Notes under the pieces: model-generated
Told to the model about the DNA's origin: nothing
The model's input: the letters and a program-made list of their open reading frames with translations, nothing else
Database searches by the model: none
Source of the DNA: Vicinamibacteria bacterium
Lineage (GTDB): Bacteria; Acidobacteriota; Vicinamibacteria; Fen-336; JAGNNV01
Direction of reading: 5' to 3'
Assembly (NCBI GenBank): GCA_031392925.1
Contig: JANMVV010000158.1
Location: forward strand, 8,760-72,759
Length of the DNA: 64,000 bases
Translations under genes and position numbers: made by a program
Shown here: piece by piece, positions 5,886 through 58,352 of the stretch
Layout: the number at the start of each line of letters is the position of its first letter
How positions within the stretch are numbered: position 1 is the stretch's first letter

Positions 5886-6878
5886 TTACCGCCCCTTCGT
5901 GATCGCCTCGAACCAGGTCTCAGCCATCAAGGCATAGCCCGCGGCCGAGGGGTGAATGTAATCGGCGAAGAGCTCGGACCATGCGAGGGGGGAGCGCTCG
6001 AACGCCGCGTACAGGTCGACCAGCGCCACGCCCTCTTCGGTCGCCATCTGCCGAATCGCCTCGTTCTGCGCCACGATCCAGCTGTTTCGCTGTGGTGAGG
6101 CCCTGAAGTCGTCCCCCAGATTGGTCATCAGCAGGGTGCCCACGAAAGCGAATCCTCCCGCCGCTTTCACCTTCTGAACCATCGAGCGCAGATTCGAGAT
6201 GGTGAAGCAGGGGGGCCGGCCGCAGAGGGGATCCGACCAGTCGTTCGTGCCGTAGAGAATGAGGGTGAACGCAGGACGGCCCGAGGCGAGGGAGGCGGCG
6301 ATCCGCGAGTCGCCGCGCTCCGAGCTCGAGGAGTCGATACCGTCGTTGATCACCTTCGCTAAGCCGAAGTGCGCGCTCAGCATTCTCTCGAGCTGACCGG
6401 TGTAGCCCTGACCATCGCCGGTGGCGGCCTGGCCGTCGGTGATGCTGTCTCCGAACGCGAGGTACACCCCGGCCGTCGCACCCGGACCGAGGGGAAGCGC
6501 GATCGGCACATTGAGATTGCCGGCGAGGGGTGGCGCCACCACCGAGCTCTCCGGGCCACGGTAGTATGGGGGAAGGGACGACGGATCGACGGAGAGGGCC
6601 TGGGCGGTCGGAAGAACATTGAGCGCCACTTCGCCGGTGAGAGGCGCGCCCTTTCCTGATGTGGAGCCAAACGACATCAGGGCGCCGGGAACCCGGATGC
6701 GCTCCGAGGCTTCGAGGAGGCCGTTCCGGTTCTCATCAAGGAACGCGGCGAAAGTGACAAGTCGGCTGGCCGCCGTGGGAGGCACCGCCCCTGCGGATCC
6801 TCCCCCACATCCGTAGGAAAGGAGGAGGGCGGCGGACATCGGGATACAGATCCTCATCGGACAGGACGGGCGAGTCAT
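5886..6878 (-). CDS. SGNH/GDSL hydrolase lipoprotein (putative O-acetyl esterase/transferase partner of AT3)
   Basis: It has GDSL blocks I (AFGDSITDG), III (GTND) and V (DYIHP). There is a lipobox-like site LLSYGCGG. Its start ATG overlaps the AT3 stop as ATGA; an alternative start is 6857. Confidence 0.75.
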   Translation of the reverse strand: MTRPSCPMRICIPMSAALLLSYGCGGGSAGAVPPTAASRLVTFAAFLDENRNGLLEASERIRVPGALMSFGSTSGKGAPLTGEVALNVLPTAQALSVDPSSLPPYYRGPESSVVAPPLAGNLNVPIALPLGPGATAGVYLAFGDSITDGQAATGDGQGYTGQLERMLSAHFGLAKVINDGIDSSSSERGDSRIAASLASGRPAFTLILYGTNDWSDPLCGRPPCFTISNLRSMVQKVKAAGGFAFVGTLLMTNLGDDFRASPQRNSWIVAQNEAIRQMATEEGVALVDLYAAFERSPLAWSELFADYIHPSAAGYALMAETWFEAITKGR

Positions 6879-10178: not shown

Positions 10179-10226
10179 ACGCGGGCGGATACGGTATCCT
10201 CTGCCCCCGTTGAGCATCCCTTCGCC

Positions 10227-12470
10227 ATGAGCCGGACGCCCTCGCCCCAAAGGGACATCCGGACCGCCACAGCCTTCTTCTTCCTCAGCGGGGCGGCAGC
10301 CTTGGTTTACCAGGTCGCCTGGCAGCGGCTCCTGGGCCTCACCACCGGCGTCGCCGTGCACTCCGTGGCCATCATCACCGCGGCCTTCATGGCTGGTCTC
10401 GGGATCGGCAGCCACTACGGGGGCCTCTATTCGGCGCGATTGACGCCGCGACGATCTCTCGTCGCTTTCGGAATCATCGAGATCGCGGTCGCGGCCTTCG
10501 CCGCGGTGAGCGTGCCCTTCTATCACGGGCTCCTCTATCGAACTCTCCCGGGGCTCTACGACAACATGCTCCTGGGGACCATCACCCACTTCGTTACCCT
10601 CCTGCCGCCCACCGCCCTCATGGGCATGTCCCTGCCCTTCCTGGTACGCGGTCTGGTGGTGGAGCGCGCGGGGGCTGCCCGCACCATCGGTTTCCTCTAT
10701 GGAGCGAACGCGCTCGGCGCGTCCGCGGGCGCGATCCTCACGCCGTGGGTCCTGCTCCGGTTCCTGGGCGTCACCGGCGCGATTCTGGTCGGCGCTCTCG
10801 GCAGCGCCGTTGCCGGGGCAGCCGCGCTGATGCTCGCCAAGCGTCGTGGAGAGGTCGAGGTCGAAGCAGCGCCGGTCGAGTCCGCGGAACACTTCGAAGA
10901 GAGCCATGAACCAGCCCAGTCCTTCGAGCGATGGGTGCTGCTCTACGCGGTTTCCGGTTTCGTCTCGCTCTCTCTCGAAGTGATCTGGTTCCGCGTGCTC
11001 GACGTCGGGGCCAAGGGCGGCGCCTTCGCCTTTGGAACCCTGCTCGCCATCTATCTCCTCGGCCTCGCCACCGGAACGTTCGTGGCCGCCCGCCGGGCCG
11101 CGTCCATCAAACGCCCGCTCGCGGTCTTCCTGATGTGCCAGATCGGGATCGTTCTCACCACCGTCCTCGCTCACGCGGCTCTGGTCTGGGCTCCGGGCAC
11201 GTGGCCCGTGATCTCTCGGCTCGTGACCTACGGGCAGCTCTCGGTCGGCGTGCATCTGCCCTCGACCGACCCGGCGATGTTCTTCATCGTGTTTCTCCTG
11301 ATGCCCCTCGTTCTCTTCGGGCCCTCCACCTTCCTGATGGGCTTCGGTTTCCCGGTCCTGCAGCGCGCCACCCAGTCGGATCCTTCATCGAGCGGACGCA
11401 CCGTGGGCCTGCTGCAGGCGGCGAACATCGCGGGCTGCACGCTCGGAAGCCTCTTCACCGGTCTGGTGCTGCTCGATCGCGTGGGCACGGCCGGCGTCTT
11501 CAAGACTCTGACCCTCATCTCCGTGGTCGTGGCTCTCTTCGGCTTCAGAGCGCTACGCGAGACGCGTTTCGCCGTCCTCGCCGGAGTCCTCGCCACAACC
11601 GCGGTCATGTTCCCGAGCAACGAACACCTCTGGTTTCGGCTCCATGGAGACCCGGACCCGAAAGGCTCAGTGGTCGAGGAGGACGCGGCCAGCGTCACCC
11701 TGCTGACTCCCGAGGCGGATCGATACAAGCTCTGGATCAACGGACGCCACAACAGTTGGCTTCCCTATGGCTGGCTGCATACCGCGATCGGCGCGCTGGC
11801 CGCGGTCTCACACCCGGCGCCCGTGGACATCGCGGTCATTGGCCTCGGTTCGGGCGACACCGCGTGGGCATCGGCATCCCGCGCGGAAACGAAGCGCGTG
11901 GTGGTCTTCGAACTCGCGTCCAGCCAGCCTGCGCTCCTGAGGCGCATCTCGGACCTGCCCACCATGGGCCGGGTGAAGGAGTTCCTCTCCGACCCTCGGG
12001 TCACCATCGTCAAGGACGACGGGCGCCGACGCCTGCACGCCGACGGCCGCCAGTACGACATCATCGTGGCCGACTCGGTCTGGACCGACGTGACCATGAG
12101 CAACAATCTCTACTCGGTCGAGTTCTACCGGCTGGTCAAGGACTCGCTCAAGCCGGGCGGCGTCATGTGCATCCTGGCCAAGACCGACCGGATTCTCGCC
12201 GCGGTAAGGCGCGTGTTTCCCTACGCGGTGGCCTTCCGCGAGGACTTCCTTCTCGTGAGTTCCGAACCGATCCATCTCGACAAGGATCTCTGGCTCGAGC
12301 GACTGCGCAGCCAGAGAATGGCGGACTATCTCGGAAAGGGCCGGGCCCGCGAAGTGGCGGAGTTCGTGCGAGCAGCCATCTACGCGCCTCCCATGGCCTC
12401 GATGGCCGACGTGAACTGGGATCTCCAGCCCAAGGACGAGTTCCTCCGCCCGTACGCTGAGCGCAAGTAG
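10227..12470 (+). CDS. Fused polytopic membrane domain / spermidine-synthase-family (polyamine aminopropyltransferase-like) protein, copy 1
   Basis: The N-terminal ~430 aa carries multiple TM helices. The C-terminal SpeE-like fold contains VIGLGSGDTAWA and DIIVADSVWTD...LYSVEFY. It is ~70% identical to the next gene. Confidence 0.8.
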   Translation: MSRTPSPQRDIRTATAFFFLSGAAALVYQVAWQRLLGLTTGVAVHSVAIITAAFMAGLGIGSHYGGLYSARLTPRRSLVAFGIIEIAVAAFAAVSVPFYHGLLYRTLPGLYDNMLLGTITHFVTLLPPTALMGMSLPFLVRGLVVERAGAARTIGFLYGANALGASAGAILTPWVLLRFLGVTGAILVGALGSAVAGAAALMLAKRRGEVEVEAAPVESAEHFEESHEPAQSFERWVLLYAVSGFVSLSLEVIWFRVLDVGAKGGAFAFGTLLAIYLLGLATGTFVAARRAASIKRPLAVFLMCQIGIVLTTVLAHAALVWAPGTWPVISRLVTYGQLSVGVHLPSTDPAMFFIVFLLMPLVLFGPSTFLMGFGFPVLQRATQSDPSSSGRTVGLLQAANIAGCTLGSLFTGLVLLDRVGTAGVFKTLTLISVVVALFGFRALRETRFAVLAGVLATTAVMFPSNEHLWFRLHGDPDPKGSVVEEDAASVTLLTPEADRYKLWINGRHNSWLPYGWLHTAIGALAAVSHPAPVDIAVIGLGSGDTAWASASRAETKRVVVFELASSQPALLRRISDLPTMGRVKEFLSDPRVTIVKDDGRRRLHADGRQYDIIVADSVWTDVTMSNNLYSVEFYRLVKDSLKPGGVMCILAKTDRILAAVRRVFPYAVAFREDFLLVSSEPIHLDKDLWLERLRSQRMADYLGKGRAREVAEFVRAAIYAPPMASMADVNWDLQPKDEFLRPYAERK

Positions 12471-12534
12471 CCCCCCAATGTTGTCGCGCCATCGCGGTGC
12501 TTGATATCCTCGCCCGCTTGAGTTCAAGATACCT

Positions 12535-14784
12535 ATGAGCCGGACTACGCCTGGTCGCGACATCCGGTTCGCCACCGCCTTCTTCTTCTTGAGCGGAGCC
12601 GCCGCCCTCGTCTATCAGGTGGCCTGGCAGCGCCTCCTCGGCCTCACCACCGGCATCGCGGTCCATTCGGTCGCGATCATCACCGCCGCTTTCATGGCCG
12701 GCCTCGGCATTGGAAGCCAGGTGGGCGGCACGATGTCCGCGAGACTCACACCGAAGAGGTCGCTCATCGCATTCGCGGTGATCGAGCTTCTGGTGGCCGG
12801 CTTCGCAACCGTGAGCGTGCCCTTCTATTACGGCTTCCTGTATCGCTACATGCCGCAGTTGTACGACGGCATGGTTCAAGGAGCGATCACCCACTTCCTC
12901 TCCCTGCTTCCGCCCACCGCTCTCATGGGAATGTCGCTTCCTTTCCTGGTGCGCGGCCTCGTGAAGGACCAGGCAGACGCTCCCCGGACCATCGGGTTGC
13001 TGTATGGAGCAAACGCGCTCGGCGCCTCGGTCGGAGCGTTCCTGACCCCGTGGGTGCTCGTCCGGTTCCTCGGCGTAACCGGCGCGATTCTCGTAGGAGC
13101 GATCGGGAGCGCGATCGCCGGGATCGGCGCGCTGATCCTGGCCCGACGCACCGCCGCCGGGATGGCGCCCGAGGCGCCAAGCCAGGAGCCGAAGGCCGCG
13201 CCGATTCCCGATTCCACTGACGAGGCCGCTCAGCCTTTGGAGCGCTGGGTCCTCCTCTACGCCCTGTCGGGGTTCGTCTCGCTTTCTCTCGAAGTGGTCT
13301 GGTTCCGGGTCCTCGACGTAACCGCCAAGGGCGGGGCCTTCGCCTTTGGGACCTTGCTTGCCGTCTATCTCCTCGGGCTTTCCGCGGGTACGTTCGTGGC
13401 CGCGCGGCGGGCCGCATCGATAAGACGGCCGCTCGAGGTGTTCCTCACCTGCCAGATCGGCGTCGTCCTGGTCACCGTCCTCGCCCACTCCCTGCTGGTA
13501 TGGCTGCCCGCCTCATTTCCGGGAATCTCGTGGATCGTCGCGTACGGCAAGACGCCCTACGGCGTCCACCTTCGAGCCGCAAGCGTTTGGGAATTCCTGA
13601 TCGTCTACCTGGGCCTGCCCATTGCTCTGTTCGGACCATCCACCTTCCTCATGGGATTCGGATTTCCCGTGCTGCAACGCGCCACTCAGAAGGATCCCGT
13701 GAGCAGCGGCCGGACCGTGGGCCTCCTGCAGGCCGCCAACATCGCGGGCTGCACCCTGGGCAGTCTCTTCACCGGCCTCGTGCTCCTCGACAAGGTGGGA
13801 ACGTCGGGCGTCTTTCAGTCGCTCTCGGTGGTGTCCCTGATCATCGCGCTGCTGGGCTTTCGCGCCACCCGCCGTGCACGCTTCGGCTGGCTCGCCGCGG
13901 CGCTCCTGCTCCTCGGCATCACGTTCCCCGCGAACGAGCATCTTTGGCTGCGTCTGCATGGAGATCCCGATCCCGTGATCTCCCTCGTCGAAGAGGACGC
14001 CGCCAGCGTCACCCTGCTGACCCCCGAGGGCGAACGCTACAAGCTCTGGATCAACGGCCGGCACAACAGCTGGCTGCCCTATGGCTGGCTTCACACCGCC
14101 ATCGGCGCGTTCCCGGCGATCGTGCACCCGAATCCCGAAGATGTGGCCGTGGTGGGAATGGGCTCGGGCGACACAGCCTGGGCGGCCTCGTCGAACGAGA
14201 AGACCCAGCGCGTCGTGGTCTTCGAGATTGCATCGAGCCAGCCCCGTCTCATGGCGCGCGTCGCTTCCCGTGATGGCATGAGCCGGGTTGCGCAGTTCCT
14301 CGCCGACAAGCGGGTGACCATCGTCAAGGACGACGGCCGGCGGCGGCTCCACGCCGATGGCCGCAAGTACGACATCATCGTGGCCGACGCCATCGACACA
14401 GACTCGACGATGAGCAACAACCTCTACTCCGTCGAGTTCTACCGTCTCGTGAAGGACACGTTGAAGCCGGGCGGACTCATGTGCGTCCTCGGAAAGACCT
14501 CCAGGATTCGGGCGGCCGCCCAACGTGCCTTCCCTTACGCGGTGGCCTTCCGAGAGGACCTTCTTCTCGTGAGCGCCGATCCGATCGTCATCGACAAGGA
14601 GGCGTGGCTCGAGAAACTTAGGAGCCCGCATCTGGTCGAGTACTTCGGCAAAGCGAGGACCCGCGAGATCTCGGAGTTCGTGCGGGGAGCCGTCTACGCG
14701 AGGCTTCCACCAAACGGCGCCGAAGTGAACTGGGACCTCCAGCCGAAGGATGAATTCCTTCGGCCGTTCACCGGCCCGCGGTAG
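12535..14784 (+). CDS. Fused membrane domain / spermidine-synthase-family protein, copy 2 (tandem paralog)
   Basis: It has the same architecture as copy 1 and is collinear with it throughout (VVGMGSGDTAWA, DIIVADAIDTD...LYSVEFY). Confidence 0.8.
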   Translation: MSRTTPGRDIRFATAFFFLSGAAALVYQVAWQRLLGLTTGIAVHSVAIITAAFMAGLGIGSQVGGTMSARLTPKRSLIAFAVIELLVAGFATVSVPFYYGFLYRYMPQLYDGMVQGAITHFLSLLPPTALMGMSLPFLVRGLVKDQADAPRTIGLLYGANALGASVGAFLTPWVLVRFLGVTGAILVGAIGSAIAGIGALILARRTAAGMAPEAPSQEPKAAPIPDSTDEAAQPLERWVLLYALSGFVSLSLEVVWFRVLDVTAKGGAFAFGTLLAVYLLGLSAGTFVAARRAASIRRPLEVFLTCQIGVVLVTVLAHSLLVWLPASFPGISWIVAYGKTPYGVHLRAASVWEFLIVYLGLPIALFGPSTFLMGFGFPVLQRATQKDPVSSGRTVGLLQAANIAGCTLGSLFTGLVLLDKVGTSGVFQSLSVVSLIIALLGFRATRRARFGWLAAALLLLGITFPANEHLWLRLHGDPDPVISLVEEDAASVTLLTPEGERYKLWINGRHNSWLPYGWLHTAIGAFPAIVHPNPEDVAVVGMGSGDTAWAASSNEKTQRVVVFEIASSQPRLMARVASRDGMSRVAQFLADKRVTIVKDDGRRRLHADGRKYDIIVADAIDTDSTMSNNLYSVEFYRLVKDTLKPGGLMCVLGKTSRIRAAAQRAFPYAVAFREDLLLVSADPIVIDKEAWLEKLRSPHLVEYFGKARTREISEFVRGAVYARLPPNGAEVNWDLQPKDEFLRPFTGPR

Positions 14785-27425: not shown

Positions 27426-28211
27426 TCAATTTTCCTCGTTCTTCAGTCCAAAAGGTCGGGGCTTGATGATCTGGGGAGGTTTCTGCCGGCTCATGTCGCC
27501 CCCGGCGCTGCGCCAGATCGCGATCCAGGTCGCGGCCACCGCGCTCACCGAGCGCGAATAGGCGATCGACGACACCGCGAACACCGGGCTGCGGAAGTCG
27601 ATCTCGGTGGCCGGGACCACCCGACCGTCCTCCTGCCCCTCTTCGCGGAGACGTGCGGCCTGGGCCGGGGTCTTCGCAATCACGCGGTCGAGAAAGCCGG
27701 GAAGCTCATCGAGAGCCAGGCGCATCGAGTCCGGCTCGACAAGCACCACCGGGATCTTGTCGAGGTTGGCGGTGGTGAAGAGATAGAACTCGCGCCGGAT
27801 GGCCTTCGCCTTCGCGTCGCTCCCGATGCCAAGGCCAACGCTCGGGTCGGCAAGGTCGACGGCCAGGCGGTAGGTGGCGCCGAGGGCGATCACCGCTCCG
27901 CGAAAGTCGTGACCGCCAAGCGCCTTCACGCGTTCCGTGAACTCCAGGGCCAGCGCCTGCTTCGTGGGCGCATCCAGCCTGCCCTTGGGAAGATCGGAAT
28001 AGACGAGGGACAGGGCCGGCATACTGGAAGTCCGGGCGTCCGCGAAGATCTCCGCTTCGTTCGCGAGAAAGATTTCGGCCAGCGACTTCGGAACGATCTT
28101 GAGCGCGTCCCTGGCGATCCGCTGGGACAGGTCGGCCGGCCACGCCTCGGCCCGGGGCGAGCCGAGAAGAAGCGCGGAGAGCGCCAGAACAAACAAGCGG
28201 CTTCGGATCAA
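27426..28211 (-). CDS. Hypothetical secreted protein
   Basis: It has a signal peptide (MIRSRLFVLALSALLLGSPRAEA). It is 4 nt from both neighbours. Confidence 0.5.
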   Translation of the reverse strand: MIRSRLFVLALSALLLGSPRAEAWPADLSQRIARDALKIVPKSLAEIFLANEAEIFADARTSSMPALSLVYSDLPKGRLDAPTKQALALEFTERVKALGGHDFRGAVIALGATYRLAVDLADPSVGLGIGSDAKAKAIRREFYLFTTANLDKIPVVLVEPDSMRLALDELPGFLDRVIAKTPAQAARLREEGQEDGRVVPATEIDFRSPVFAVSSIAYSRSVSAVAATWIAIWRSAGGDMSRQKPPQIIKPRPFGLKNEEN

Positions 28212-28215
28212 GCGA

Positions 28216-28839
28216 TCAATCGATCCGCACGGGCTTCGCCTTGAGCGCCACTTTTCCGTCCTGAAGGGCCACCCGGAAATCCACGGCCACCGCGTCCTTC
28301 TCCTCGAGCAAGCGGGTGCGCTGCTGGGCGATGAGCTTCTTGAAGGACTCGAACTTCACCTCCGACTCGCCCACCGAGGCGCGCGCCGCCTTGAACTGCT
28401 CGTACAGGACCTTCACTCCCTGCTCGTCTTCGCGCAGGGTGCTGAGACGCACTTCCACTCGGGCGCCGGCCCCGGGGTCCACGGCCCTCGACCCAGCCAG
28501 GAGCGGCGGCGCCGCCGCGGTGGTGGCGGAGGCTTCGGCCGCGTCGCGCACGTGCTTGAGCTGGACGGAGGAGAGCGGCCGCCCTTCCTCGATGGCGCGG
28601 AGCTTGCGGTTCCACAAGTCGGAAAGCGTGTTGTACTTCGCGGTGAGGGACTGGAATCTGAACCGCTCGATATTGTTCCGAATCTCCACACCCACGTAAC
28701 GGCGCACCAGCCGATCCAGCCGCTGCTTGGCCTCGAACGGAGCCTTGCGCTCCTGCCCCGAGAAGAACCGCTCCCATTCCTTCTGGAGCTTGAAGATCCC
28801 CTGGTCGATCTTCTCGAGATCTTCCTCTAGCGCGCTCAT
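28216..28839 (-). CDS. Hypothetical cytoplasmic protein (charged, helical)
   Basis: It has good GC3 bias and no recognisable motifs. Confidence 0.5.
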   Translation of the reverse strand: MSALEEDLEKIDQGIFKLQKEWERFFSGQERKAPFEAKQRLDRLVRRYVGVEIRNNIERFRFQSLTAKYNTLSDLWNRKLRAIEEGRPLSSVQLKHVRDAAEASATTAAAPPLLAGSRAVDPGAGARVEVRLSTLREDEQGVKVLYEQFKAARASVGESEVKFESFKKLIAQQRTRLLEEKDAVAVDFRVALQDGKVALKAKPVRID

Positions 28840-28882
28840 CGATAGAACCCCGACCCGATTCCCGAGATCAAGGCCATGGCCA

Positions 28883-29284
28883 TCACTCCTTCACGAAGAA
28901 GGACATGAGAGGAAGCCACAGCTCGTGGCCGTAGGGAGCCTTCCGGCCCGCCACCAGGATCTCGCTGCCCGGGCGCGCGGCCACGAGCGAAGCCACGTCG
29001 CGCAATAGGGACGCCTGCTCGGTCCGGAATTCGGCGCGATAGCGCGTGATCGAGCCTTCCTTGAAGGTGCTGAAGGATGCGGCCTGCCCGGAAAGCCGCT
29101 TCGCCCTCGTCACCACGTCATCCTCGGAGTCGTCGAACACCACCGAAATGGCGAAAGGCTTCTGCCGGCGGCCCGGGTAGAGGATCTCCACCAGTTCGTC
29201 GGACATGCCTTCGATGTTCTCTTCGACCTTCGGCACCACAGGGGGCAGACGGTCGGCATACGTCGGAACGCGGTCCCGGCTCAT
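28883..29284 (-). CDS. Hypothetical protein (133 aa)
   Basis: It has coding bias and lies in the co-directional array. Confidence 0.45.
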   Translation of the reverse strand: MSRDRVPTYADRLPPVVPKVEENIEGMSDELVEILYPGRRQKPFAISVVFDDSEDDVVTRAKRLSGQAASFSTFKEGSITRYRAEFRTEQASLLRDVASLVAARPGSEILVAGRKAPYGHELWLPLMSFFVKE

Positions 29285-30674: not shown

Positions 30675-32801
30675 TTAGAGCTTGAAGTCGATTTGAATGG
30701 CGACCCAGGCCCGGCCGGGTTTGCCGTTGAGGGTGGCCGGCTTGTACTTGCGCCGTTTCACGTTGTCGAGCGCGGCCTGATTGAGGCCCGAGGTGCCGGC
30801 AACACCGCGGATGAGGCGGACTTCGGCCACGTTTCCCTGCTCGTCCACCAGCGCCGAGACCACCACGCTTCCGGTGATCCTCTGCGCACGGGCTATGGGC
30901 GGATACTCGATCCTGAACTGCGAGACGAGAATCGGGGCCACCACCACCGGGTCGGAGAGATCGAGCAGTGCCGGACCTCCGGCGGGCGCCGGGGCCGCGG
31001 CGGCTCCCGCGGGCGGCGGGACTGCAGCCGTGGGTGGGGGCGAGGCGGGGGAAGCGGCCACGGGAGCGGGCGTGCTCGCCGGAGCGATGGACGGGGATGC
31101 GGCGGCGGCCTCGAATGCTTTCGCGACCTCCGCGGCCCTCGCGGCCTCGGCGGCGCGAGTTTCCTCCGCCTTCTTCCTCTCCTCTTCGATCTTCAGACGC
31201 TCGGCCTGCAGACGGGCCTCCTGATCGGCCTGGGCCTTCTTCCTCGCTTCGTCCTGGGCCTTTTGCAGTTCCGCCGGATCGACGGCCCGGCCTTTCGCCT
31301 TGGCCTGAGCTTCGATCGTCTTCTTCGCTTCGTCCGCCGCCTTCTGTTCGGCCGCGACCTTTTCAGCCTCGAGCGCCGCGAGGCGCGACTCGAGCTCGCG
31401 AACCCGAGCGAGGGCCGCCGTCTCCGCCGCGTTCATGGTGGGCGCGGTGGCAGGGCCGGGAGTCGGAGCGGCGGAGCGCGTGAGGAAATAGCCCGCGACC
31501 GCCGCAACCACGACCACCCCGATGACAACCGGCGCCACGGGGAAGCCCTTCTTCTCGGCCAGGATGCTCTGGAAGAGCTGGTCTTCAGCCGGGCTCGGAG
31601 GCGCCGGGCTCGCCGCCGGCGCCGGAACGCGGCTGATGCGCCCCGAGTCGTGCTTGACCGGTTCAAACTTGGCGGCTTCCGCCTTGAAGGCCTCGGGCCG
31701 GATCGCGTCCATCCGAAGCGTGCTGTCGAGGGCGGCCCTGGGCGGAGCGGCGGGCGTCGACGCCGGCCCGCCGTGGACCAGGCCGGAGGCCGAGACCACC
31801 GTTGGCGCGGCCGCGGCGGGGGGAGCGCTCATCTCGGCGAGATACGGCCGGTAGTCCGCGTTCTTTTCGGCCTTGATCCGGGCCGCGTCGTCGTCTCCCT
31901 CGTCACGGAAAAGAGTGTGCATGAAGAACGCAAGATTGAACGTGGTCGGCGAATAGTCGCCGGAGAAGAGCAGAGTGTCGACCGCCTTCTTGAACGCGGT
32001 CGCATCCTTGAACCTCCGGCCCGGATCCTCGGCCAGGGCCTGGCCGAGGAGCGCCGCCAGCGCTTTGGGGATGGGCGCCCCGTCCGTTCCGGGCGACTGG
32101 ATCCTCGCGGCTTCGATGCTCTTGAGCGTCGATTCCGTCCGGGGCAGGGCCACCCCGGTGAGCATCTCGAAGAGTTGCGCGCCGAGACTGAAGATATCGG
32201 CCCTGATGTCGAGGGGCGCCGTCCCTTCCAGTTCAGGGGCGAGGAACCTGGCCTCGCGGACCCCCACGCAATTCGCGTTGCGCAGGACGCGAGGCGGCAG
32301 TCCGAAACCGCGGACACTGACTTCGCCGTCATGGGACACGTGGATGAATTCCGGAACCAGGAAGCCGTGGGTCTGCTTCTTACCCTGGGCCGCCTCGAGA
32401 GCGGCCGCGGCCTTGCTCGCGATCAGGAGGGCGTGGTCGGCGGCGAAAGGGTGGCCCTCGGCCTGCGACCGCTCCATGAGCGCGCCCACCGATCGGCCGT
32501 CGAACAGTTCATATGCCGAAAACGCCGTCTTGTCGAGGCGTCCGGCCTCGAAGCCGCGGACCACCTGCGCGTGCTGGACCGCCAGTCCGTTTTTCAGCCC
32601 GTCGGCCAGAGCCTGGGCGACCTCGGGGGCCAGGAGTTCGGAGCGAAACAGCTGGACATGCCGCTCGTATCCCGAGGTCCCCAGTTGTATGGCGCGAAAG
32701 AACGAGCCAGCGCTGGTTCGCGCGTCCTCGGACTGCAGGACGAACCGACCGTATCGCTCTTTGGTCTCCACGTGGCGCCTCGCTTCACGGACAGCAAACA
32801 C
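30675..32801 (-). CDS. Membrane pseudokinase (degenerate Hanks-type kinase fold) - TolA-like coiled coil - TonB C-terminal domain fusion
   Basis: The kinase-like domain retains APE/subdomain IX-XI (FLAPELEGTAPLDIRADIFSLGAQLFEMLTG) but has lost catalytic residues. HRD has become HGF, DFG has become GFG, the beta3 Lys is replaced by Gln (HVQLF), and the Gly-loop is degenerate. One TM helix follows, then a Lys/Ala/Glu coiled coil (EEERKKAEETRAAEAAR...), then a TonB_C domain (EYPPIARAQRITGSVVVSALVDEQGNVAEVRLIRG...LDNVKRRKYKPA...). Confidence 0.8.
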   Translation of the reverse strand: MFAVREARRHVETKERYGRFVLQSEDARTSAGSFFRAIQLGTSGYERHVQLFRSELLAPEVAQALADGLKNGLAVQHAQVVRGFEAGRLDKTAFSAYELFDGRSVGALMERSQAEGHPFAADHALLIASKAAAALEAAQGKKQTHGFLVPEFIHVSHDGEVSVRGFGLPPRVLRNANCVGVREARFLAPELEGTAPLDIRADIFSLGAQLFEMLTGVALPRTESTLKSIEAARIQSPGTDGAPIPKALAALLGQALAEDPGRRFKDATAFKKAVDTLLFSGDYSPTTFNLAFFMHTLFRDEGDDDAARIKAEKNADYRPYLAEMSAPPAAAAPTVVSASGLVHGGPASTPAAPPRAALDSTLRMDAIRPEAFKAEAAKFEPVKHDSGRISRVPAPAASPAPPSPAEDQLFQSILAEKKGFPVAPVVIGVVVVAAVAGYFLTRSAAPTPGPATAPTMNAAETAALARVRELESRLAALEAEKVAAEQKAADEAKKTIEAQAKAKGRAVDPAELQKAQDEARKKAQADQEARLQAERLKIEEERKKAEETRAAEAARAAEVAKAFEAAAASPSIAPASTPAPVAASPASPPPTAAVPPPAGAAAAPAPAGGPALLDLSDPVVVAPILVSQFRIEYPPIARAQRITGSVVVSALVDEQGNVAEVRLIRGVAGTSGLNQAALDNVKRRKYKPATLNGKPGRAWVAIQIDFKL

Positions 32802-32887
32802 CGGGGCTTCCTTCCTCTTGAAGTCGGATCGCCCACCGCGGCTGTCGTCCCGAGAACGCTACACGCCGAGCGACCCCGAGGTCAATG

Positions 32888-33760
32888 TCAGCGCTCCGAC
32901 GAACCTGCCTTGAGAACCACGCGTCCGTGCAGGGGCGAGGTAAACACCGCCCCCTCGTCACGGTCGATCGAGACGCAGGTCCAGCCGTCGACGGCATCGC
33001 CCACCGAGATGACGCGGACCTCGTCGCCCACGCGAATGGAGACGCGGCTCTTCCCTTCCGAGACCAGGAACGCGACCAGGGCAAACGGCGGCGCGGGCGC
33101 CGGCTCGACCGCGGGGATCGTCCCGGCCGGATCGAGAGGGGCAGCGGAAGGCGTCAGAGGGCGGGGCGGGGCGAGCCTTCGCGGCGTCTTCGAGACCTCA
33201 GGCAAAGGTGCAGCCTCCGCCGGAGGCGGATCCGAACCCCCGGAGCAGGCCGGGGGCGCGGGGATGCTGCCGCCCGGAAGCGATTCAAACACTCCGGTGT
33301 TGGCGGAGATGGCCCAGTTCTCGCCCTTTTCTCGAATGGAGACACCGCGCAGGAAGGCTCCGCGGCCCGGATCCCCCAGCCTCTTTAGAAGCTCCACTAC
33401 TGAGCGGTGCGCCCCGGTGGCCTCCACCGTGGCGCCTCCCTCGGAACCGCCGGTCACGCTCAGGGCGAAGGGCGATAGCGAAAGGCCGGCGGTCGCGGCG
33501 ACCGCGCGCTGACGCAGCGACGCCGGATCCGAGGAAGCCCGGCAGACGGTTCCGAGAGCGCTGCCGATGCGGGCGCGAAGGGCCTTTGTCTCGCCCACCC
33601 CGCGCTCGGCCTTGACCCGGTCGCGCCGGATCTTGCTCTGCTGGCTCAGTCGAGTCTCCTGCTCGGCCCGCATGGGAGCGACGAGACCGAACCACACGAT
33701 CGCCGCCAGGAGCCACGGCGCGATCGCTTGGACCTCCCGGCTCGTCCGGCGTTTCATCAT
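32888..33760 (-). CDS. PilO-like + PilP-like fusion (T4P/T2SS inner-membrane alignment-subcomplex-like protein)
   Basis: It starts at MMKRR (Met249 of the long track ORF), and this ATG overlaps the upstream TGA as ATGA. It has an N-terminal TM, a periplasmic ferredoxin-like region, a Pro-rich linker, and a C-terminal beta domain (VAFLVSEGKSRVSIRVGDEVRVISVGDAV...) resembling the PilP/GspC pilot domain. The first 248 codons of the track ORF are out-of-frame overlap and not coding. Confidence 0.5.
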   Translation of the reverse strand: MMKRRTSREVQAIAPWLLAAIVWFGLVAPMRAEQETRLSQQSKIRRDRVKAERGVGETKALRARIGSALGTVCRASSDPASLRQRAVAATAGLSLSPFALSVTGGSEGGATVEATGAHRSVVELLKRLGDPGRGAFLRGVSIREKGENWAISANTGVFESLPGGSIPAPPACSGGSDPPPAEAAPLPEVSKTPRRLAPPRPLTPSAAPLDPAGTIPAVEPAPAPPFALVAFLVSEGKSRVSIRVGDEVRVISVGDAVDGWTCVSIDRDEGAVFTSPLHGRVVLKAGSSER

Positions 33761-34290
33761 CGCGCGATCCCCTTCGGACGATGAAGGGCCGCGACGGTCG
33801 CGCGGACCAGGCCGGGGCGGCTCTCTGACCCGGGACGGATATCGCTGAAGCGCGGCGCCTTCGAAAGGGCGCTCAGGAAGCGGTCGTAGGCCTCGGGCCC
33901 GCGGGCGACCACAGCCAGTTCCACGCGAGCGGTCGCATCCGGCTGGTACTCGATCCTGTAACTCATCACCGAGACGCCCTGGGGAAGAATCTCCCGCAGA
34001 TCGGCGATGATCCGCTCGGGCGACGACTCCACGCTGGCGGCCGCGACGAGGAGGTCCGGACTCTTGAGCAGCATCCGCTTTTCGCTCTCGGCCGACTGAG
34101 CGAGCGCCGCCGCCTCGGCCATCGCCTTGCGCATCGATCGATCCGCCGAAGAGGCGGCCATTCCCTCGCTGGCCGCGATGGCGAGCGCATACGCGAGGGC
34201 CACGAAGCCCGCGATCTGCACGCCTCGCCAGGCGCCTTGCGCTTCGTCGGCGAGGGCGCGCGAGCCGAATTCGGGGAGGCCGAGGCTCAC
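33757..34290 (-). CDS. PilN/PilO/GspM-like bitopic membrane protein
   Basis: It has a short cytoplasmic N-terminus, one TM (GVQIAGFVALAYALAIAASEG), a coiled coil and a ferredoxin-like periplasmic domain. Its GTG start overlaps the upstream stop as GTGA. Confidence 0.45.
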   Translation of the reverse strand: MSLGLPEFGSRALADEAQGAWRGVQIAGFVALAYALAIAASEGMAASSADRSMRKAMAEAAALAQSAESEKRMLLKSPDLLVAAASVESSPERIIADLREILPQGVSVMSYRIEYQPDATARVELAVVARGPEAYDRFLSALSKAPRFSDIRPGSESRPGLVRATVAALHRPKGIAR

Positions 34291-35135
34291 TTCGAAGCAC
34301 TCTCGTGGAAGAGGGACAGGAACGGAAACCGCTGAGGATCGGCGGCGCCGCGAAGGGCCGGTTCATCGAACGCGGTCTGGATCGTGACATCGCTGGCCTT
34401 GCCCCGCAGGGAGGAGGCGTCCTCGCCGAGCACGCGGATTTCCGAGACTTCGCTCGCCGCCCGCAGGGCTTCGTCGATCGAGCGCTGACCCCGGTCGTCT
34501 CCAAGGACGAGGAGACGGAGGTGGATCGCGTCCATGACCCCGGAAGCGTCGCGGACCGCGATGGCGCAGGCCGAGTCGCCGAAGATGAGATCCACCGTGC
34601 CCGGTCTCGGCGGGAGGCCGCGCAGGGCGGCGGAGAGCGAGGACGTGACCCGGGGGCGGCCGAATCCGAGCGAGGTCATCACCCTCTCGCCTTCCTCGAT
34701 CGTGGTTTTGAGCACGGCCTGGGCCAGCACCGCGCCGCGGTGGACCGAGGACGAGCGTTCCGACCGGACCTCGGACAGCGCGATCGGAAAAGGCAGGAGG
34801 GGGGCCAGCCGGAACCGGACCAGATCGGCTTCCTCCACCTCCGGAGCCTGCGTCTTCTTCATGGCGGAGAGGTCGACGATCGAAGGAAAGGAGGCGCCCA
34901 GGGGCAGGAGGAGCGTGGCGTCACCGGAAGGGGCCTTGAGTTCGCGGGAGAGGCGAGAGACCGCCTCCCTCGAATCGGCCAGGACATCGGAAAAGAGGTC
35001 GCCCCCGCTGGCGCGCGACGCGAACCGCTCCGAACCGAAACGTTCCAGGCGCGGGCCCGAGAAACCCTCCCGATAGACCGCGAGGGCGGCGCTGCGCGTG
35101 TCGACAAAGACGAGCGCCTTCTCGGAGAACCACAT
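34287..35135 (-). CDS. PilM/GspL-cytoplasmic-domain-like (actin-like ATPase fold) protein
   Basis: It has an N-terminal KALVFVDTRSAALAVYREGFSGPRLERFGSERF pattern matching the first beta-hairpin of PilM. It is soluble with no TM. Confidence 0.4.
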   Translation of the reverse strand: MWFSEKALVFVDTRSAALAVYREGFSGPRLERFGSERFASRASGGDLFSDVLADSREAVSRLSRELKAPSGDATLLLPLGASFPSIVDLSAMKKTQAPEVEEADLVRFRLAPLLPFPIALSEVRSERSSSVHRGAVLAQAVLKTTIEEGERVMTSLGFGRPRVTSSLSAALRGLPPRPGTVDLIFGDSACAIAVRDASGVMDAIHLRLLVLGDDRGQRSIDEALRAASEVSEIRVLGEDASSLRGKASDVTIQTAFDEPALRGAADPQRFPFLSLFHESASK

Positions 35136-35269: not shown

Positions 35270-37369
35270 ATGAAGGCTTTCGAGAGCACGCAGATCCGCA
35301 ACGTGGCGCTGGTCGGTCACGGAGGCTGCGGGAAGACCTCGATCGTGGCCGACGCTCTGTTCACCATGGGGGTGACGCCGAGGCTCGGCCACGTCACCGA
35401 TGGCACCGCGGCCACCGACTTCGACCCCGAGGAGATCGAGCGAAAGATTTCGATCCAGACTTCGGTCGCGAGCGGTGACTGGGCGGACACCCGCATCAAC
35501 CTCATCGACACGCCCGGATACGCGAACTTCGTGGGCGAGGCGCTCTCCGCTCTGCGGGCCGCCGATGCCGCCATCGAAGTGGTCGACGCGGTCGCGGGGC
35601 CGGAGGTGCAGACCCATCGCCTTTTTCACGCGGCCGAGGACATGGAGCTTCCGCGCGTCTTCGTGATCAATCGGATGGACCGCGAGAACGCCTCATTCGG
35701 CCACACCGTGGAGGCCCTGCGGAAGGCCTTCGGACGCACGGTCACTCCCATCGAGTTCCCCATCGGGGAAGGAGCCGCGTTCAAGGGTGTCGTCGACCTG
35801 GTGAACTCCAAGGCCTGGGCGTTTCTGGACGACGAGAGCGGCACCTTCAGCGAGTTCAAGATGACCAAGGATCTCGAGGAGGCGACGGTGCGCTTCCGCC
35901 AGGAGCTCGTGGAGGTGGTGGCCGAGACCGATGAGGCGCTCATGGCCGAGTTCTTCGACAAGGGGACGCTGTCGCCGGAAGCACTCGGGGAAGGACTGAA
36001 GAAGGCGTGCCAGCGCGGCCAGATCTTCCCCACCCTTCCCTTCTCTTCGATCAAGAACATCGGCGCGGCCCAGCTGCTGAACGCGATTGTCGCCTACCTG
36101 CCGAGCCCCACCGACCGGCCGGAGGTGAAGGGCAAGGGCCCCGCGGGCGAAGAGTCGAGGCCCTGCTCGGTGAGCGCGCCCGCCTCGGCCTTCGTGTTCA
36201 AGACCATCTCCGATCCGCACGCCGGACGCCTCTCCTTCGTGCGCGTGGTCTCGGGAAAGTTCAATCACGACCTCACCATCACGGTTTTGAGCCGCGACGT
36301 CCAGGAGCGCGTGGGGGCCTTGTCCCACGTGGTCGGGAAGACCCTCGTCCCCGCCACCGAACTGATCGCCGGCGACATTGGCGTGATCGCAAAACTCAAG
36401 GAGGCCCACACTGGAGACACGCTCTCCGACAAGGCCCGCCCGATCACCTTCCCGCCCATCGACTGGCCGGAAACCCTCACCACCTTCGCGATCGCGCCGA
36501 AGACGCGGGGCGACGACGACAAGATCGGCATCGCGATGAGCCGCCTCATCGAAGAAGACCCGGTCCTGAAACTCGAGCATGCCACCGAGACCCATGAGCT
36601 GCTCCTGCGCGGCCTCGGCCAGCTCCACATCGAGACCGTCGTCTCCAAGCTCGCCAAGCGCTACAAGGTGGAGGTGAACCTCAAGCGCCCCACCATCCCC
36701 TATCGCGAGACCATCAAGGCTTCGGCCGACGGCCACGGGCGCCACAAGAAGCAGACCGGCGGTCACGGCCAGTTCGCGGACTGCAAGATCACCATGCGTC
36801 CCCTGGCGCGCGGGGAAGACTTCAAGTACATCAACGGCACCTTCGGCGGCTCCATTCCCAGGAACTTCCTGCCCGCCATCGAGAAGGGCATCCAGGAAAG
36901 CCGCAAGCGCGGCGTCATCGCGGGCTGTCCCATGGTGGACTTCGAAGTGGAGGTCACCGACGGCCAGTTTCATGACGTCGACTCCTCGGAAATGGCCTTC
37001 AAGATCGCGGGGTCGCTGGCCTTCAAAGACGCGGTCGCGAAGTGCCGGCCCACCCTGCTCGAGCCCATGATGGCGGTGGAGGTGGTGATGCCCGAGGAGT
37101 TCGCGGGGGCGGTGATGGGCGACCTGTCCAGCCGTCGCGGCCGGCCCCAGGGCATGGAGCCTTTCCGCGATCTTCAGAAGATCAAGGCGGAGGTCCCGCT
37201 GGCCGAACTCGAGACCTTCGATCAGGACCTCACCTCTCTTACCGGCGGCCGCGGTTCCTTTCACATGGAGTTGATCCGGTACGATGAGGTGCCGGGCCAC
37301 CTTCTCGATAAGGTGGCGGCCGAGATCCGGGCTCACCGACCCGGAGACCATCACAAGGAAGAGGAATAG
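35270..37369 (+). CDS. Elongation factor G paralog (EF-G-like) with degenerate GTPase switch II
   Basis: It has the full five-domain EF-G length and retains the domain IV tip ([14 protein letters not shown]). G1 is GHGGCGKTS rather than [10 protein letters not shown]3 is DTPGY rather than DTPGH, so the catalytic His is replaced by Tyr. G4 is NRMD. Confidence 0.8.
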   Translation: MKAFESTQIRNVALVGHGGCGKTSIVADALFTMGVTPRLGHVTDGTAATDFDPEEIERKISIQTSVASGDWADTRINLIDTPGYANFVGEALSALRAADAAIEVVDAVAGPEVQTHRLFHAAEDMELPRVFVINRMDRENASFGHTVEALRKAFGRTVTPIEFPIGEGAAFKGVVDLVNSKAWAFLDDESGTFSEFKMTKDLEEATVRFRQELVEVVAETDEALMAEFFDKGTLSPEALGEGLKKACQRGQIFPTLPFSSIKNIGAAQLLNAIVAYLPSPTDRPEVKGKGPAGEESRPCSVSAPASAFVFKTISDPHAGRLSFVRVVSGKFNHDLTITVLSRDVQERVGALSHVVGKTLVPATELIAGDIGVIAKLKEAHTGDTLSDKARPITFPPIDWPETLTTFAIAPKTRGDDDKIGIAMSRLIEEDPVLKLEHATETHELLLRGLGQLHIETVVSKLAKRYKVEVNLKRPTIPYRETIKASADGHGRHKKQTGGHGQFADCKITMRPLARGEDFKYINGTFGGSIPRNFLPAIEKGIQESRKRGVIAGCPMVDFEVEVTDGQFHDVDSSEMAFKIAGSLAFKDAVAKCRPTLLEPMMAVEVVMPEEFAGAVMGDLSSRRGRPQGMEPFRDLQKIKAEVPLAELETFDQDLTSLTGGRGSFHMELIRYDEVPGHLLDKVAAEIRAHRPGDHHKEEE

Positions 37370-38664
37370 TGCTGAAGAAGATCGCGTCGATTGTCGCCCT
37401 CCTGTCCCTTGTAGGGCCCTCCGTGTGGGCTCAGACCGCGAGTCCCACGCCGGGTCCCGCCTCCACGCCCTCGCCGGGCCCCGCCGCTCCGGGGGCGAAG
37501 GCCGTCGATGCGAAGCTCGCCGGCCAGGATGTGCCGGTACCGGCCCGGAAGAAGTACGTCGCTCCCGAGTACCCGGCGAGCGCCGCGGCGGAAGGAATCC
37601 GCGGGATCGTCATTCTCGATGTCCTGATCGCGGAGGACGGCCGAGTGGAGAGCACCCGGGTGACCCGGTCCATCCCGGGCCTCGATGAAGCGGCGATGAA
37701 CGCGGTGAGGCTCTGGGAATACGAGCCCACGAAGCTTACGGGCAAACCCGTGAAGGTCCGGCTGTCGCAGTCGATCACCTTCGCCTTGAAGCTGCCCGAA
37801 CTGCAGCGCGCTCCCGGCATTCCGGAACTGAAGAGCGGGGGCGCGCCGCCCTTGCCTCCGGGCCTCGCCACCGCGGAGACGGCCTCGGTCATGATCGCTC
37901 TCGGTCCCCAGGGGGAAGTCCAGGAAGCGGCGGTGGTCGAGGGCAATCCTTCGGCGGGCGAAGCCCTGCTGCGCGCGGTGAAGGCCTGGCGCTTCACGGT
38001 CTCGGAAGGCGCTCCGCCCCTCGTGTTCACGGTGCGTGCGGACTGGGCGCCCGGACCTCCGCCCACCCTCGCCCTCAAGGCCCTGGACCCGCGAAGCCCC
38101 AACCCGGCCGCCGCATCCCCGGCCCCCCGGGCGTCCCCGTTGCCCGCGCCCTCGTCGTCGCCCACCGCGGCGAGCACGTCCACGGCTGCGCCTTCTGCCG
38201 CGCCCAAGGCCCCGGTGGCAACGTCCCCCGTGCCCGCGGTGACCGCGGTCCCTGCCGCACCCAGCGTTCCCGTGGCTCCCGCCCCCGTGGCTCCCACGGT
38301 GGATACCGACGTGATCCCCGCACGTCAGGAGCCTCCGGCGAAGGAGGAGGGGGTCTCAGCGGTGGCCGAAGTGAGTCTTGGCAACAACATCCCGGACCTG
38401 GTGAAGGGCCGGCGGCCAGTGTGGCCGCCCATGGCGCGCCTCGGCAACGTCATGGGCGAGGTGGTGGTGCGATTCTCCGTGGACCTCGCGGGCCGGGTCA
38501 CGGTTCATTCCGCCGAAGGGCCGGACCTGCTCAAGGGCGCGGCCGAGCAGGCGGTGGGCACCTGGGTCTTCAGGCGAACCGCTATCGACCGGGTGCACCT
38601 CATCGCAACCTTCAAGTACGGGGCCGAGCGGTCGATCGCGAAAGTCGAGCGGGTGGCGCAGTAG
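37369..38664 (+). CDS. Secreted protein with two to three tandem TonB C-terminal-like domains
   Basis: It has a signal peptide and a Pro/Ala-rich linker. The TonB_C-like patterns are at ~aa 60-140 (KKYVAPEYPASAAAEGIRGIVILDVLIAEDGRV...LDEAAMNAVRLWEYEP), at ~175-235 (weaker), and at ~330-420. Its GTG start overlaps the EF-G-like TAG by 1 nt. Confidence 0.65.
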   Translation: MLKKIASIVALLSLVGPSVWAQTASPTPGPASTPSPGPAAPGAKAVDAKLAGQDVPVPARKKYVAPEYPASAAAEGIRGIVILDVLIAEDGRVESTRVTRSIPGLDEAAMNAVRLWEYEPTKLTGKPVKVRLSQSITFALKLPELQRAPGIPELKSGGAPPLPPGLATAETASVMIALGPQGEVQEAAVVEGNPSAGEALLRAVKAWRFTVSEGAPPLVFTVRADWAPGPPPTLALKALDPRSPNPAAASPAPRASPLPAPSSSPTAASTSTAAPSAAPKAPVATSPVPAVTAVPAAPSVPVAPAPVAPTVDTDVIPARQEPPAKEEGVSAVAEVSLGNNIPDLVKGRRPVWPPMARLGNVMGEVVVRFSVDLAGRVTVHSAEGPDLLKGAAEQAVGTWVFRRTAIDRVHLIATFKYGAERSIAKVERVAQ

Positions 38665-56217: not shown

Positions 56218-58317
56218 TTACGTGGTGCGCTGCGCCTTGCCGGACGACTTGGCGATGACTTCTTCGGCGACGTTCCGGGGCGCTTCTTCGTACTTCTCGA
56301 AGTGCATCGTGTAGGTCGCGCGTCCCTGCGTGCGCGACCGCAGGTCCGTGGAATAACCGAACATGTTGGAAAGAGGAACCAGCGCGTTGATGAGGTTGGT
56401 GCCGCCGCGCGAGGTCTGGCCCTGGAGCTGACCGCGGCGGGACGACAGGTCTCCGGAGACAACCCCGGTGTACTCGTCGGGGGTGACCACTTCGACCTTC
56501 ATAATGGGCTCGAGAATGACGGGATCGGCCTTGCGCGCGCCATTTTGAATGGCGAGCGAGCCCGCCAGCTTGAACGCCATTTCACTGGAGTCGACGTCGT
56601 GGTAGCTGCCGTCGTAGAGCCGAACATGGACGTCCACCATGGGAAAGCCGGCCAGGACGCCGCGTTCGAGCGCTTCCTTGACCCCCATCTCGATGGGCTT
56701 GATGAATTCCTTGGGAATCGATCCGCCGGTCAGGTCGTTCTCGAACACGAAGCCCAGGCCGGGATTCGGCGCGCATTCGATCTTGCAATGTCCATACTGG
56801 CCCTTGCCGCCGCTCTGCTTGATCCACTTGCCTTCGGCCAGCGCCTTCTTGCGGATGGTCTCGCGGTAGGCGACCTGGGGCTTGCCCACGTTCGCTTCCA
56901 CGCCGAACTCGCGTTTCAACCGGTCCACGATGATCTCAAGATGGAGTTCGCCCATGCCGGAGATCTTGGTCTGGTTGGTCTCGGGATCGCTCTCGACCTT
57001 GAAGGTCGGATCTTCCTGCATGAGCTTGCCCAGACCGACGCCCATCTTTTCCTGGTCGGTCTTGGTCTTGGGCTCGACGGCCAGGGAGATGACGGGAGCC
57101 GGGAACACGATGGCTTCCAGAAGGACAGGCTTGTCGCCGTCGCAGATGGTGTCCCCGGTGGACACGTTCTTGAGGCCGATCGCGGCCGCGATATCGCCCG
57201 CGTAGATCTCCTTGATCTCTTCGCGCTTGTTCGCGTGCATCTTGACCAGGCGGCCGATGCGCTCGCGCGTGCCCTTGGTGGCGTTCAGGAGGGTGTCTCC
57301 CGCCTTCATCTGGCCGGAGTACACGCGGATGAACGCGAGCTGGCCGACGAAGGGATCGGTCATGATCTTGAAAACGAGGCCAGAGAAGGGCGCGCTGTCA
57401 TCGCAGGGACGCTCGACCGGCTGCCGCGTGTCCGGATCGATGGCGACGGTCGGCGGGATGTCGAGGGGCGAGGGCAGGTAGGCGATGACCGCGTCGAGCA
57501 TGGGCTGCACGCCCTTGTTCTTGAACGCGGTGCCGCAGACCACCGGGAAGAGCTTGAGCGCGATGGTGGCCCGGCGGATGCCGGCCTTCAGCTCGGCGGT
57601 GGTGATCTCTTCACCCTTGAGGAACTTGTCGGTGAGGTGATCGTCGACCTCCGAGACCGTCTCGATGAGGTGGTCGCGGGAGAGCTTGGCCTCTTCGAGC
57701 ATGTCGGCGGGGACCTCTTCCGTCTTGTACTCGGCGCCCATGGTCTCGTCTTCGTACCGGTACGCCTTCATCTCGACGAGGTCGATCACGCCGATGAACT
57801 TGTCCTCGGCGCCGATGGGAAGCTGGATCGCCACCGGGGTCTTGGCCGAGAGGCGATCGATCATCATGTCGATGCAGTGCTGGAAATCGGCGCCCACGCG
57901 GTCCATCTTGTTGATGAAGGCGATGCGGGGGACGTTGTACTTGTCGGCCTGGCGCCACACCGTCTCGGACTGGGGCTGCACGCCGGAGACCGCGTCGAAG
58001 ACCGCGACCGCGCCGTCCAAAACCCGGAGCGAACGCTCGACCTCAGCGGTGAAGTCGACGTGGCCCGGAGTGTCGATGATGTTGATCCGGTGGTCTTTCC
58101 AGAAGCACGTGGTCGCGGCGGAGGTGATGGTGATGCCACGCTCCTGCTCCTGCTCCATCCAGTCCATGGTGGCGGTGCCGTCGTGGACTTCACCGATCTT
58201 GTAGTTGACACCGGTGTAGAAAAGAATCCGCTCGGTCGTCGTGGTCTTGCCCGCGTCGATATGCGCGGCAATCCCGATGTTGCGGGTCTTTTCGAGAGAG
58301 GTAGAACGAGCAGCCAC
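56218..58317 (-). CDS. fusA: Elongation factor G (canonical)
   Basis: [27 protein letters not shown]. Confidence 0.95.
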
Positions 58318-58352
58318 GATTGTTTCTCAGGCGTCCTTAAGGGGGGAACCAA

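Follow-up and report, generated by a model that had tools for sequence, protein, structure and literature searches.

Four genes at positions 30675-35135 of a 64,000-nt stretch of DNA from a Vicinamibacteria bacterium (assembly GCA_031392925.1, contig JANMVV010000158.1), hereafter the window, raise the question of whether an inner-membrane scaffold of the kind used by type IV pili (T4P) and type II secretion systems (T2SS) is encoded here and, if so, which envelope machine it serves. All four genes lie on the minus strand. The first three, designated A, B and C, are well supported as a scaffold of the PilMNOP/GspLMC type and encode a PilM-PilN-PilO::PilP set that is genuine although strongly diverged. 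The fourth gene, D, encodes a membrane protein with a catalytically dead kinase fold and a TonB_C domain, and is best explained as a frequent yet dispensable lineage-specific accessory of the trio. New here are the conserved block of trio and D, its deep conservation at one chromosomal position, a derived fusion of the PilO-like and PilP-like parts, and the repeated loss of D.

The genes are tightly arranged. At the A/B junction the GTG start of B overlaps the TGA stop of A (GTGA), at the B/C junction the TGA stop of B is overlapped by the ATG start of C (ATGA), and C and D are separated by 86 nt when GTG 32801 is taken as the start of D, although D homologs suggest that the real start may be several codons downstream. 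Coordinates, gene order, both 4-nt overlaps and the spacing of D were all as given in an initial sequence-only reading of the locus. The G+C content at third codon positions (GC3) was 0.81-0.84 in A, B, C and D, within a window of 62-69% G+C, and hydropathy indicated a single hydrophobic helix in each of B, C and D and none in A. A word-based homology search yielded 96 clusters for A, 103 for B and 70 for C, nearly all full length and without names, and the taxon, where recorded, was Vicinamibacteria. Because there are 70-103 full-length homolog clusters per gene, A-D are taken to be real conserved genes, and the possibility that the trio consists of chance open reading frames (ORFs) was rejected on this conservation. 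Three candidate distant homologs (P0095, P0269 and P0166) were also rejected, as they derive from frameshift-rich long-read assemblies (L002, L003; L numbers denote fetched loci). A promoter and terminator scan of 29-36 kb found no promoter-like sites, terminator-like sites at chance level and nothing between C and D, and is uninformative on co-transcription either way.

A, B and C encode a diverged set of PilMNOP-type scaffold proteins

Protein A has the FtsA/PilM type of actin-like fold. Its best structural matches were PilM structures, Foldseek independently placed PilM at the top, and the protein was structurally nearer to PilM than to GspL. At the sequence level, A itself gave no match to the Pfam PilM_2 model (PF11104) at E ≤ 1, and the model was matched at E < 0.01 by 5 of 56 members of the wider A family, whose relatives of ~270-285 aa were collected by an exhaustive profile search. 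A profile of the close family of A found no match among Protein Data Bank (PDB) sequences; the widened profile alone found PilM, with E-values of 1.9e-11, 1.7e-9 and 4e-6. Because the wider-family profile matches PilM sequences in the PDB, A is considered a remote sequence homolog of PilM and not a mere look-alike. It is ~70-90 residues shorter than PilM, and ~6 residues separate strand 201-208 from helix 215-226, where subdomain 2B would be inserted.

Protein B scored 16 bits against Pfam PilN (PF05137), under the 22.8 cut-off. The same model was matched by 30 of 36 members of the B family (best E 2.3e-6), some of them above threshold in precomputed data. The canonical PilN N-terminal motif INLLP is absent from B, which begins MSLGLPEFGS, with PDFSS in distant relatives. 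Profile-profile comparison of the B and C families detected no similarity between them.

The predicted model of C begins with a long helix, covering the membrane and coiled-coil parts, and a ferredoxin-like domain, after which come a proline-rich disordered stretch and a small β-domain, with a predicted local distance difference test (pLDDT) score below 50 across residues 175-221 of the linker. The N-terminal half thus combines the membrane helix, coiled coil and ferredoxin-like periplasmic domain of PilO/GspM proteins, and the C-terminal part has the β-domain of homology region (HR) type found in PilP and GspC. The lipobox cysteine of the PilP lipoprotein is not found, and the domain is instead fused to the PilO-like half. 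Profiles of the close family of C and of its β-domain gave no match to PDB sequences.

These assignments agree with the sequence-only reading, which had described an actin-fold PilM/GspL-like first gene, a bitopic PilN/O/GspM-like second gene and a PilO-like::PilP-like fusion as the third. Recognition by existing hidden Markov models was more restricted: none of the Pfam PilM, PilO and PilP models recognizes the window proteins, A and C are without any Pfam or NCBIfam match, and B has the sub-threshold PilN score. Comparisons at the family level and of structures supplied the remaining assignments.

Several observations support reading the trio as one unit. Its start/stop overlaps are kept in many related loci, and natural in-frame A::B fusions of 456-481 aa, an architecture like that of GspL, occur in five separate clusters with the LPDFGS peptide of B retained. 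In distant relatives the PilO-like and PilP-like parts are encoded by separate genes of ~163 and ~150 aa, and the separate P proteins have their own hydrophobic N-terminal helix and no lipobox cysteine. As distant relatives carry O and P as separate genes, the O::P fusion, present in the window and in locus L020, is derived. Weak T2SSM matches were obtained with the O genes of distant relatives, and a weak T2SSC match with the fused C-type (O::P) protein of L020. The weakest member of the family, P0332 (326 aa), lies within a pilC-pilB-pilM-N-O-P cluster of the ordinary kind (L026), and the family therefore grades into ordinary pilus genes.

The cluster in L026 (6954-13818 of that locus) is canonical-looking and also includes a prepilin-like gene. 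Its PilM has no recorded Pfam match, and no secretin was found in the 7 kb after the cluster. The pilus scaffold genes of this group may generally be beyond the reach of current models.

Gene D encodes a conserved pseudokinase with a TonB_C domain

Alignment of the cytoplasmic domain of D to PknE and StkP showed that HRD is replaced by HGF, DFG by GFG and the β3 lysine by leucine, and that the catalytic-loop lysine and asparagine are replaced by valine and phenylalanine. An active Hanks-type Ser/Thr kinase is not indicated, as the β3 lysine, HRD aspartate, catalytic-loop asparagine and DFG aspartate are all lost. Identical losses were present in every D homolog examined, including those only 38-41% identical. 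Because the fold is kept, all catalytic residues are replaced and the losses are common to all homologs, D is regarded as a conserved pseudokinase. Its best conserved part, judged by invariant alignment columns, is a 23-residue motif, LLFSGD[YF][ST]PTTFNLAF[FL]MH[ST]LFR, which straddles the C-terminal edge of the kinase-like region.

The single membrane helix of D (FPVAPVVIGVVVVAAVAGYFL) is free of histidine, unlike that of TonB. Beyond it, the charged helical segment gave only weak low-complexity Pfam matches and matched no TolA model, and a weak NCBIfam match of D to the AgmX/PglI C-terminal domain was noted (E 0.085). The earlier description of this gene as a dead kinase with a membrane helix and a TonB_C end is hence upheld, and its "TolA-like" label reflects composition only.

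The block is conserved at one chromosomal position, and D can be lost

Gene A was found in 16 species-representative genomes, of class Vicinamibacteria where the class was recorded and otherwise labeled Acidobacteriota. Throughout Vicinamibacteria the region is syntenic: the ribosomal-protein operon runs to its gene for ribosomal protein L17 and is followed on the opposite strand by a second EF-G (EF-G2) and a secreted multi-TonB_C protein, then by A-B-C-D, an M19 dipeptidase gene, three uncharacterized genes and purH. More distant loci (L020, L023-L027) were placed by RpoA identity. In these relatives, where A is 26-31% and RpoA 66-69% identical, the arrangement [EF-G2 / TonB_C protein]-[M-N-O-P] is retained at the same place and the genes further downstream differ; D is also retained in L020, L024 and L027. 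The block thus recurs at one chromosomal position from Vicinamibacteria out to 66-69% RpoA identity.

The association between D and the trio was also approached from D alone, using its invariant 23-aa motif as the pattern in a metagenome search. At least 321 relatives were obtained, and 80 loci were kept and scanned with custom M, N, O and P profiles. A full M-N-O-P set lay upstream on the same strand in 15 of the 19 D-anchored loci having at least 5 kb of upstream sequence. Parts of the set were present in 30 of the 38 loci with 1-5 kb upstream, mostly as far as the contig extends.

D is nevertheless dispensable. It is absent beside an intact trio in L008, L012, L014 and L022, a transposase-like ORF (305 aa, 6099-7016 on the minus strand, called by reading the sequence) occupies its place in L007, a Vicinamibacteria metagenome-assembled genome, and D was not seen in the ~8.5 kb fetched downstream of the set in L023. 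The D-less loci fall at scattered points of a rough tree of A, which indicates several independent losses. In several lineages (L024, L043, L047, L049, L060, L061, L064 and L091) the opposite strand carries, between the P gene and D, a conserved gene of ~550-600 aa; its product has a signal peptide and an HExxH motif (HEVGHRW) and no Pfam family on record (in L024, 9787-11430 on the minus strand). As this opposite-strand gene intervenes, D is a separate transcription unit in those lineages. Conversely, D-like genes occur without M-N-O-P in L040, L066, L082 and L098, where their neighbors share no common partner. The proposed link between the trio and D consequently stands as a conserved neighborhood and not as an obligate partnership, and D as an obligate fourth subunit was rejected because of its repeated loss beside an intact trio.

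Which machine does the scaffold serve?

The most economical reading, which we advance with a little less than even confidence, is that the trio scaffolds an envelope machine of the filament type, the remaining genes of which are located at other sites in the genome, and that D is an accessory anchor. Folds, domain order, the pseudokinase state, gene fusions and neighborhood conservation are observed features of the locus, and from them we infer the distal machine and all physical contacts. By analogy with type IVa pili (T4aP) and T2SS, A in the cytoplasm would clamp the N-terminal LP(E/D)F(G/S)S peptide of B, and B and C would pair via their membrane helices, coiled coils and ferredoxin-like domains. 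The β-domain of C, held on a proline-rich tether of ~60 residues, could then reach an N0-type domain of an outer-membrane partner, which, together with any ATPase and filament subunits, would be encoded elsewhere in the genome. The dead kinase fold of D would offer a cytoplasmic docking surface, and its TonB_C end may tie the assembly to the cell wall or to a protein of the outer membrane, comparable to the help that FimV, TsaP or PocAB-TonB3 give to pilus machines in other bacteria.

A number of results weigh against a filament-type machine. Pfam scans of the window ORFs detected no secretin, PilB/T, PilC, ExbB/D or TolQ/R family; the larger ORFs outside these scans lie in the ribosomal-protein operon and were identified by synteny with L001. 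No prepilin motif was present in any of the six frames of the window, phmmer searches with the PilB and PilC of L026 found no homolog in the window or the other fetched loci (106 loci, 0.92 Mb), and no secretin family is on record for the called genes of the annotated related loci. In diderm bacteria pilQ normally follows pilP directly, and here the next gene after C is D or that of the M19 dipeptidase. In addition, A appears in its predicted model to lack subdomain 2B and so may not act like PilM, and its first phosphate loop is free of glycine (VDTRSAA), another respect in which it may differ from PilM in behavior. Finally, the PilN of L026, in its canonical cluster, has ITINLA and hence the canonical INL motif; the different motif of B suggests a system insulated from the canonical one.

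The sequence-only reading had stressed the missing genes, and a secretin, PilB/T, PilC and a pilin were indeed not found in the 64 kb; for a prepilin peptidase, no search with a model of its own was made. At T4aP loci, however, it is normal for ATPase, platform and pilin genes to be missing within 64 kb. Because only the missing adjacent secretin gene is unusual for T4aP, the window does not imply that the trio is an orphan.

A second explanation, which is possible but doubtful, is a stand-alone, pilus-independent complex that tethers or signals across the envelope and is built from a PilMNOP-derived scaffold and the pseudokinase-TonB_C protein. The β-domain of C would in that case bind an N0/STN-like domain of a TonB-dependent receptor and not a secretin, and the neighboring secreted multi-TonB_C protein may join in. 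Such a complex would account for a block that is kept amid changing surrounding genes down to an RpoA identity of 66-69%, for the M-N-O-P set in 15 of 19 D-anchored loci and for PilB and PilC never being adjacent in the 0.92 Mb of loci. A specialized paralog would fit with the shortened PilM-like protein and with the change in the N-terminal PilN motif, and the family-wide pseudokinase state with the invariant 23-aa motif suggests, from sequence, a binding role. Against this, loss or relocation of D beside an intact trio happened at least four times, an opposite-strand gene precedes D in several lineages, D-like genes occur without the set in four loci, and the scanned ORFs nearby include no ExbB/ExbD or TolQ/R motor gene. 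Moreover, we know of no job for the PilP/GspC HR domain other than secretin binding. The envelope-spanning signaling or anchoring module first proposed for the locus is therefore possible, though not the leading explanation.

Less probable still, and in our judgment unlikely, is that the trio simply serves an ordinary T4P or T2SS encoded elsewhere and that D, the EF-G2 paralog and the TonB_C protein are unrelated neighbors whose place where the ribosomal-protein operon ends reflects inherited gene order alone. Pilus genes are often scattered over several loci, D is dispensable, and the whole region is syntenic in Vicinamibacteria, including the unrelated M19 dipeptidase gene and purH. In UBA6911, another Acidobacteriota family, T4P genes were reported in most genera and T2SS genes in all genomes (10.1101/2021.04.09.439258). 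However, D stays by the set in distant relatives despite the lost downstream synteny, even across an inserted gene, and the association was recovered when starting from D alone. A decaying, functionless remnant of a lost pilus operon is very improbable and was rejected on conservation: partner genes are missing nearby and the divergence of the sequences puts them out of reach of Pfam models, but more than 100 loci carry intact full-length genes with conserved lengths and overlaps, invariant residues and high GC3, and the predicted folds are confident.

Relation to known systems

The closest counterpart of the trio is the PilM-PilN-PilO-PilP set of T4aP, as in Pseudomonas aeruginosa, Myxococcus xanthus and Thermus thermophilus, whose four domain types and their gene order are matched here. 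The trio differs in that no pilQ follows it, PilO and PilP are fused, the separate P of relatives has a hydrophobic helix instead of the PilP lipoprotein signal, and the N-terminus of B reads LP(E/D)F(G/S)S in place of the INLLP of PilN. GspL-GspM-GspC of T2SS is an equivalent scaffold; however, no GspD, E, F or pseudopilin genes lie near the trio, and C lacks the PDZ domain or coiled-coil tail that follows the HR domain of GspC. To our knowledge, PilMNOP and GspLMC scaffolds are found only within filament machines, with their genes normally sitting with the secretin gene.

For a TonB-family protein acting with PilMNOP, the PocAB-TonB3 system is a precedent. TonB3 works with the ExbB/ExbD-like PocAB, whereas D has no ExbB/ExbD-like neighbors, its membrane helix is devoid of histidine, and its pseudokinase has no counterpart in TonB3. 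In P. aeruginosa, PocA-PocB-TonB3 is required to place the PilMNOP subcomplex, PilO is delocalized in a pocA mutant, and PilQ's N0 domain resembles the signaling domain of a TonB-dependent receptor (PMC5285504). D also shares a general plan with two proteins of the M. xanthus gliding machine. GltG and GltJ each have a cytoplasmic domain, one membrane helix, a long periplasmic linker and a TonB_C-type end, but their cytoplasmic domain is different, and the Glt system has no PilMNOP-like part and requires the AglQRS motor, to which nothing comparable was seen here. The membrane protein EssB/YukC of type VIIb secretion has a cytoplasmic pseudokinase fold and resembles D in using a dead kinase fold as the cytoplasmic scaffold of an envelope machine; it belongs, however, to an unrelated monoderm system and has no TonB_C domain. 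The literature that was searched contained no description of a block joining the trio to a pseudokinase-TonB_C protein.

At the locus, a diverged scaffold copy is partnered with a TonB-type pseudokinase in place of a secretin and keeps a single housekeeping position throughout a deep branch of the Acidobacteriota, a soil phylum that is abundant and little studied. Should the scaffold work for a pilus or secretion system, it would illustrate the extent to which such scaffolds can diverge and would add a new class of accessory anchor. If instead a stand-alone complex were true, it would be the first re-use of the PilMNOP/GspLMC scaffold outside filament machines, widespread in soil Acidobacteriota and coupling the cytoplasm to outer-membrane or TonB-dependent proteins; a function would then follow for the large pseudokinase-TonB_C family, with its at least 321 relatives in one metagenome scan.

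Features of the locus and neighboring genes

Table 1. Positions of the four genes, their domains and other features of the window
Feature	Position (nt)	Strand	Description
Gene A	34287-35135	-	282 aa, ATG start; cytoplasmic PilM-like actin-fold protein without membrane helix
Gene B	33757-34290	-	177 aa, GTG start; bitopic PilN-like protein
B, cytoplasmic N-terminus MSLGLPEFGS	34258-34290	-	conserved; residues invariant or almost so
B, membrane helix, aa 23-44	34159-34224	-	hydropathy
B, periplasmic PilN-type domain, aa 94-151		-	
Gene C	32888-33760	-	290 aa, ATG start
C, N-terminal half, aa 1-160	33281-33760	-	membrane helix aa 9-31, long coiled-coil helix, ferredoxin-like PilO/GspM-type domain
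C, linker, aa 161-224	33089-33280	-	proline-rich, predicted disordered; invariant Cys172 (alignment)
C, β-domain, aa 225-290 and stop	32888-33088	-	PilP/GspC-HR-like
Gene D	30675-32801	-	708 aa with GTG at 32801 as start
D, pseudokinase domain, ~aa 14-290	31932-32762	-	cytoplasmic; borderline match to Pfam Pkinase, 31.6 bits; NCBIfam PknB-type E 1.6e-17
D, invariant motif, aa 277-299	31905-31973	-	LLFSGDYSPTTFNLAFFMHTLFR
D, membrane helix, aa 417-445	31467-31553	-	single; hydropathy
D, periplasmic segment	31107-31439	-	Ala/Glu/Lys-rich helical segment, then Pro/Ala-rich linker (read from sequence)
D, TonB_C domain, aa 631-708 and stop	30675-30911	-	Pfam TonB_C (PF03544) E 2e-18, 67 bits; TIGR01352 E 4e-15
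EF-G2 paralog	35270-37369	+	699 aa; Pfam; divergent from A
Signal-peptide protein	37369-38664	+	at least two TonB_C domains (sequence); start/stop overlap with EF-G2
Operon fusA	56218-58326		
Three genes between M19 dipeptidase gene and purH	27426-29284	-	133, 207 and 261 aa
TPR/SLH protein	59705-61033	-	tetratricopeptide (TPR) repeats and S-layer-homology (SLH) domain
Tandem paralogs	10179-12470 and 12505-14784	+	each a major facilitator superfamily (MFS)-type membrane domain fused to a spermine/spermidine-synthase-like domain

The pair formed by EF-G2 and the TonB_C protein adjoins A in almost all loci, distant ones included, and EF-G2 is absent only in L011. The two genes are conserved divergent neighbors of the block, and any role in its system is putative. 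The operon fusA gene is distinct from the EF-G2 paralog. The three genes between the M19 dipeptidase gene and purH gave no Pfam match and, among the fetched loci, are present only in those from Vicinamibacteria. Elsewhere, the window encodes the TPR/SLH protein and the tandem MFS-synthase paralogs listed in Table 1.

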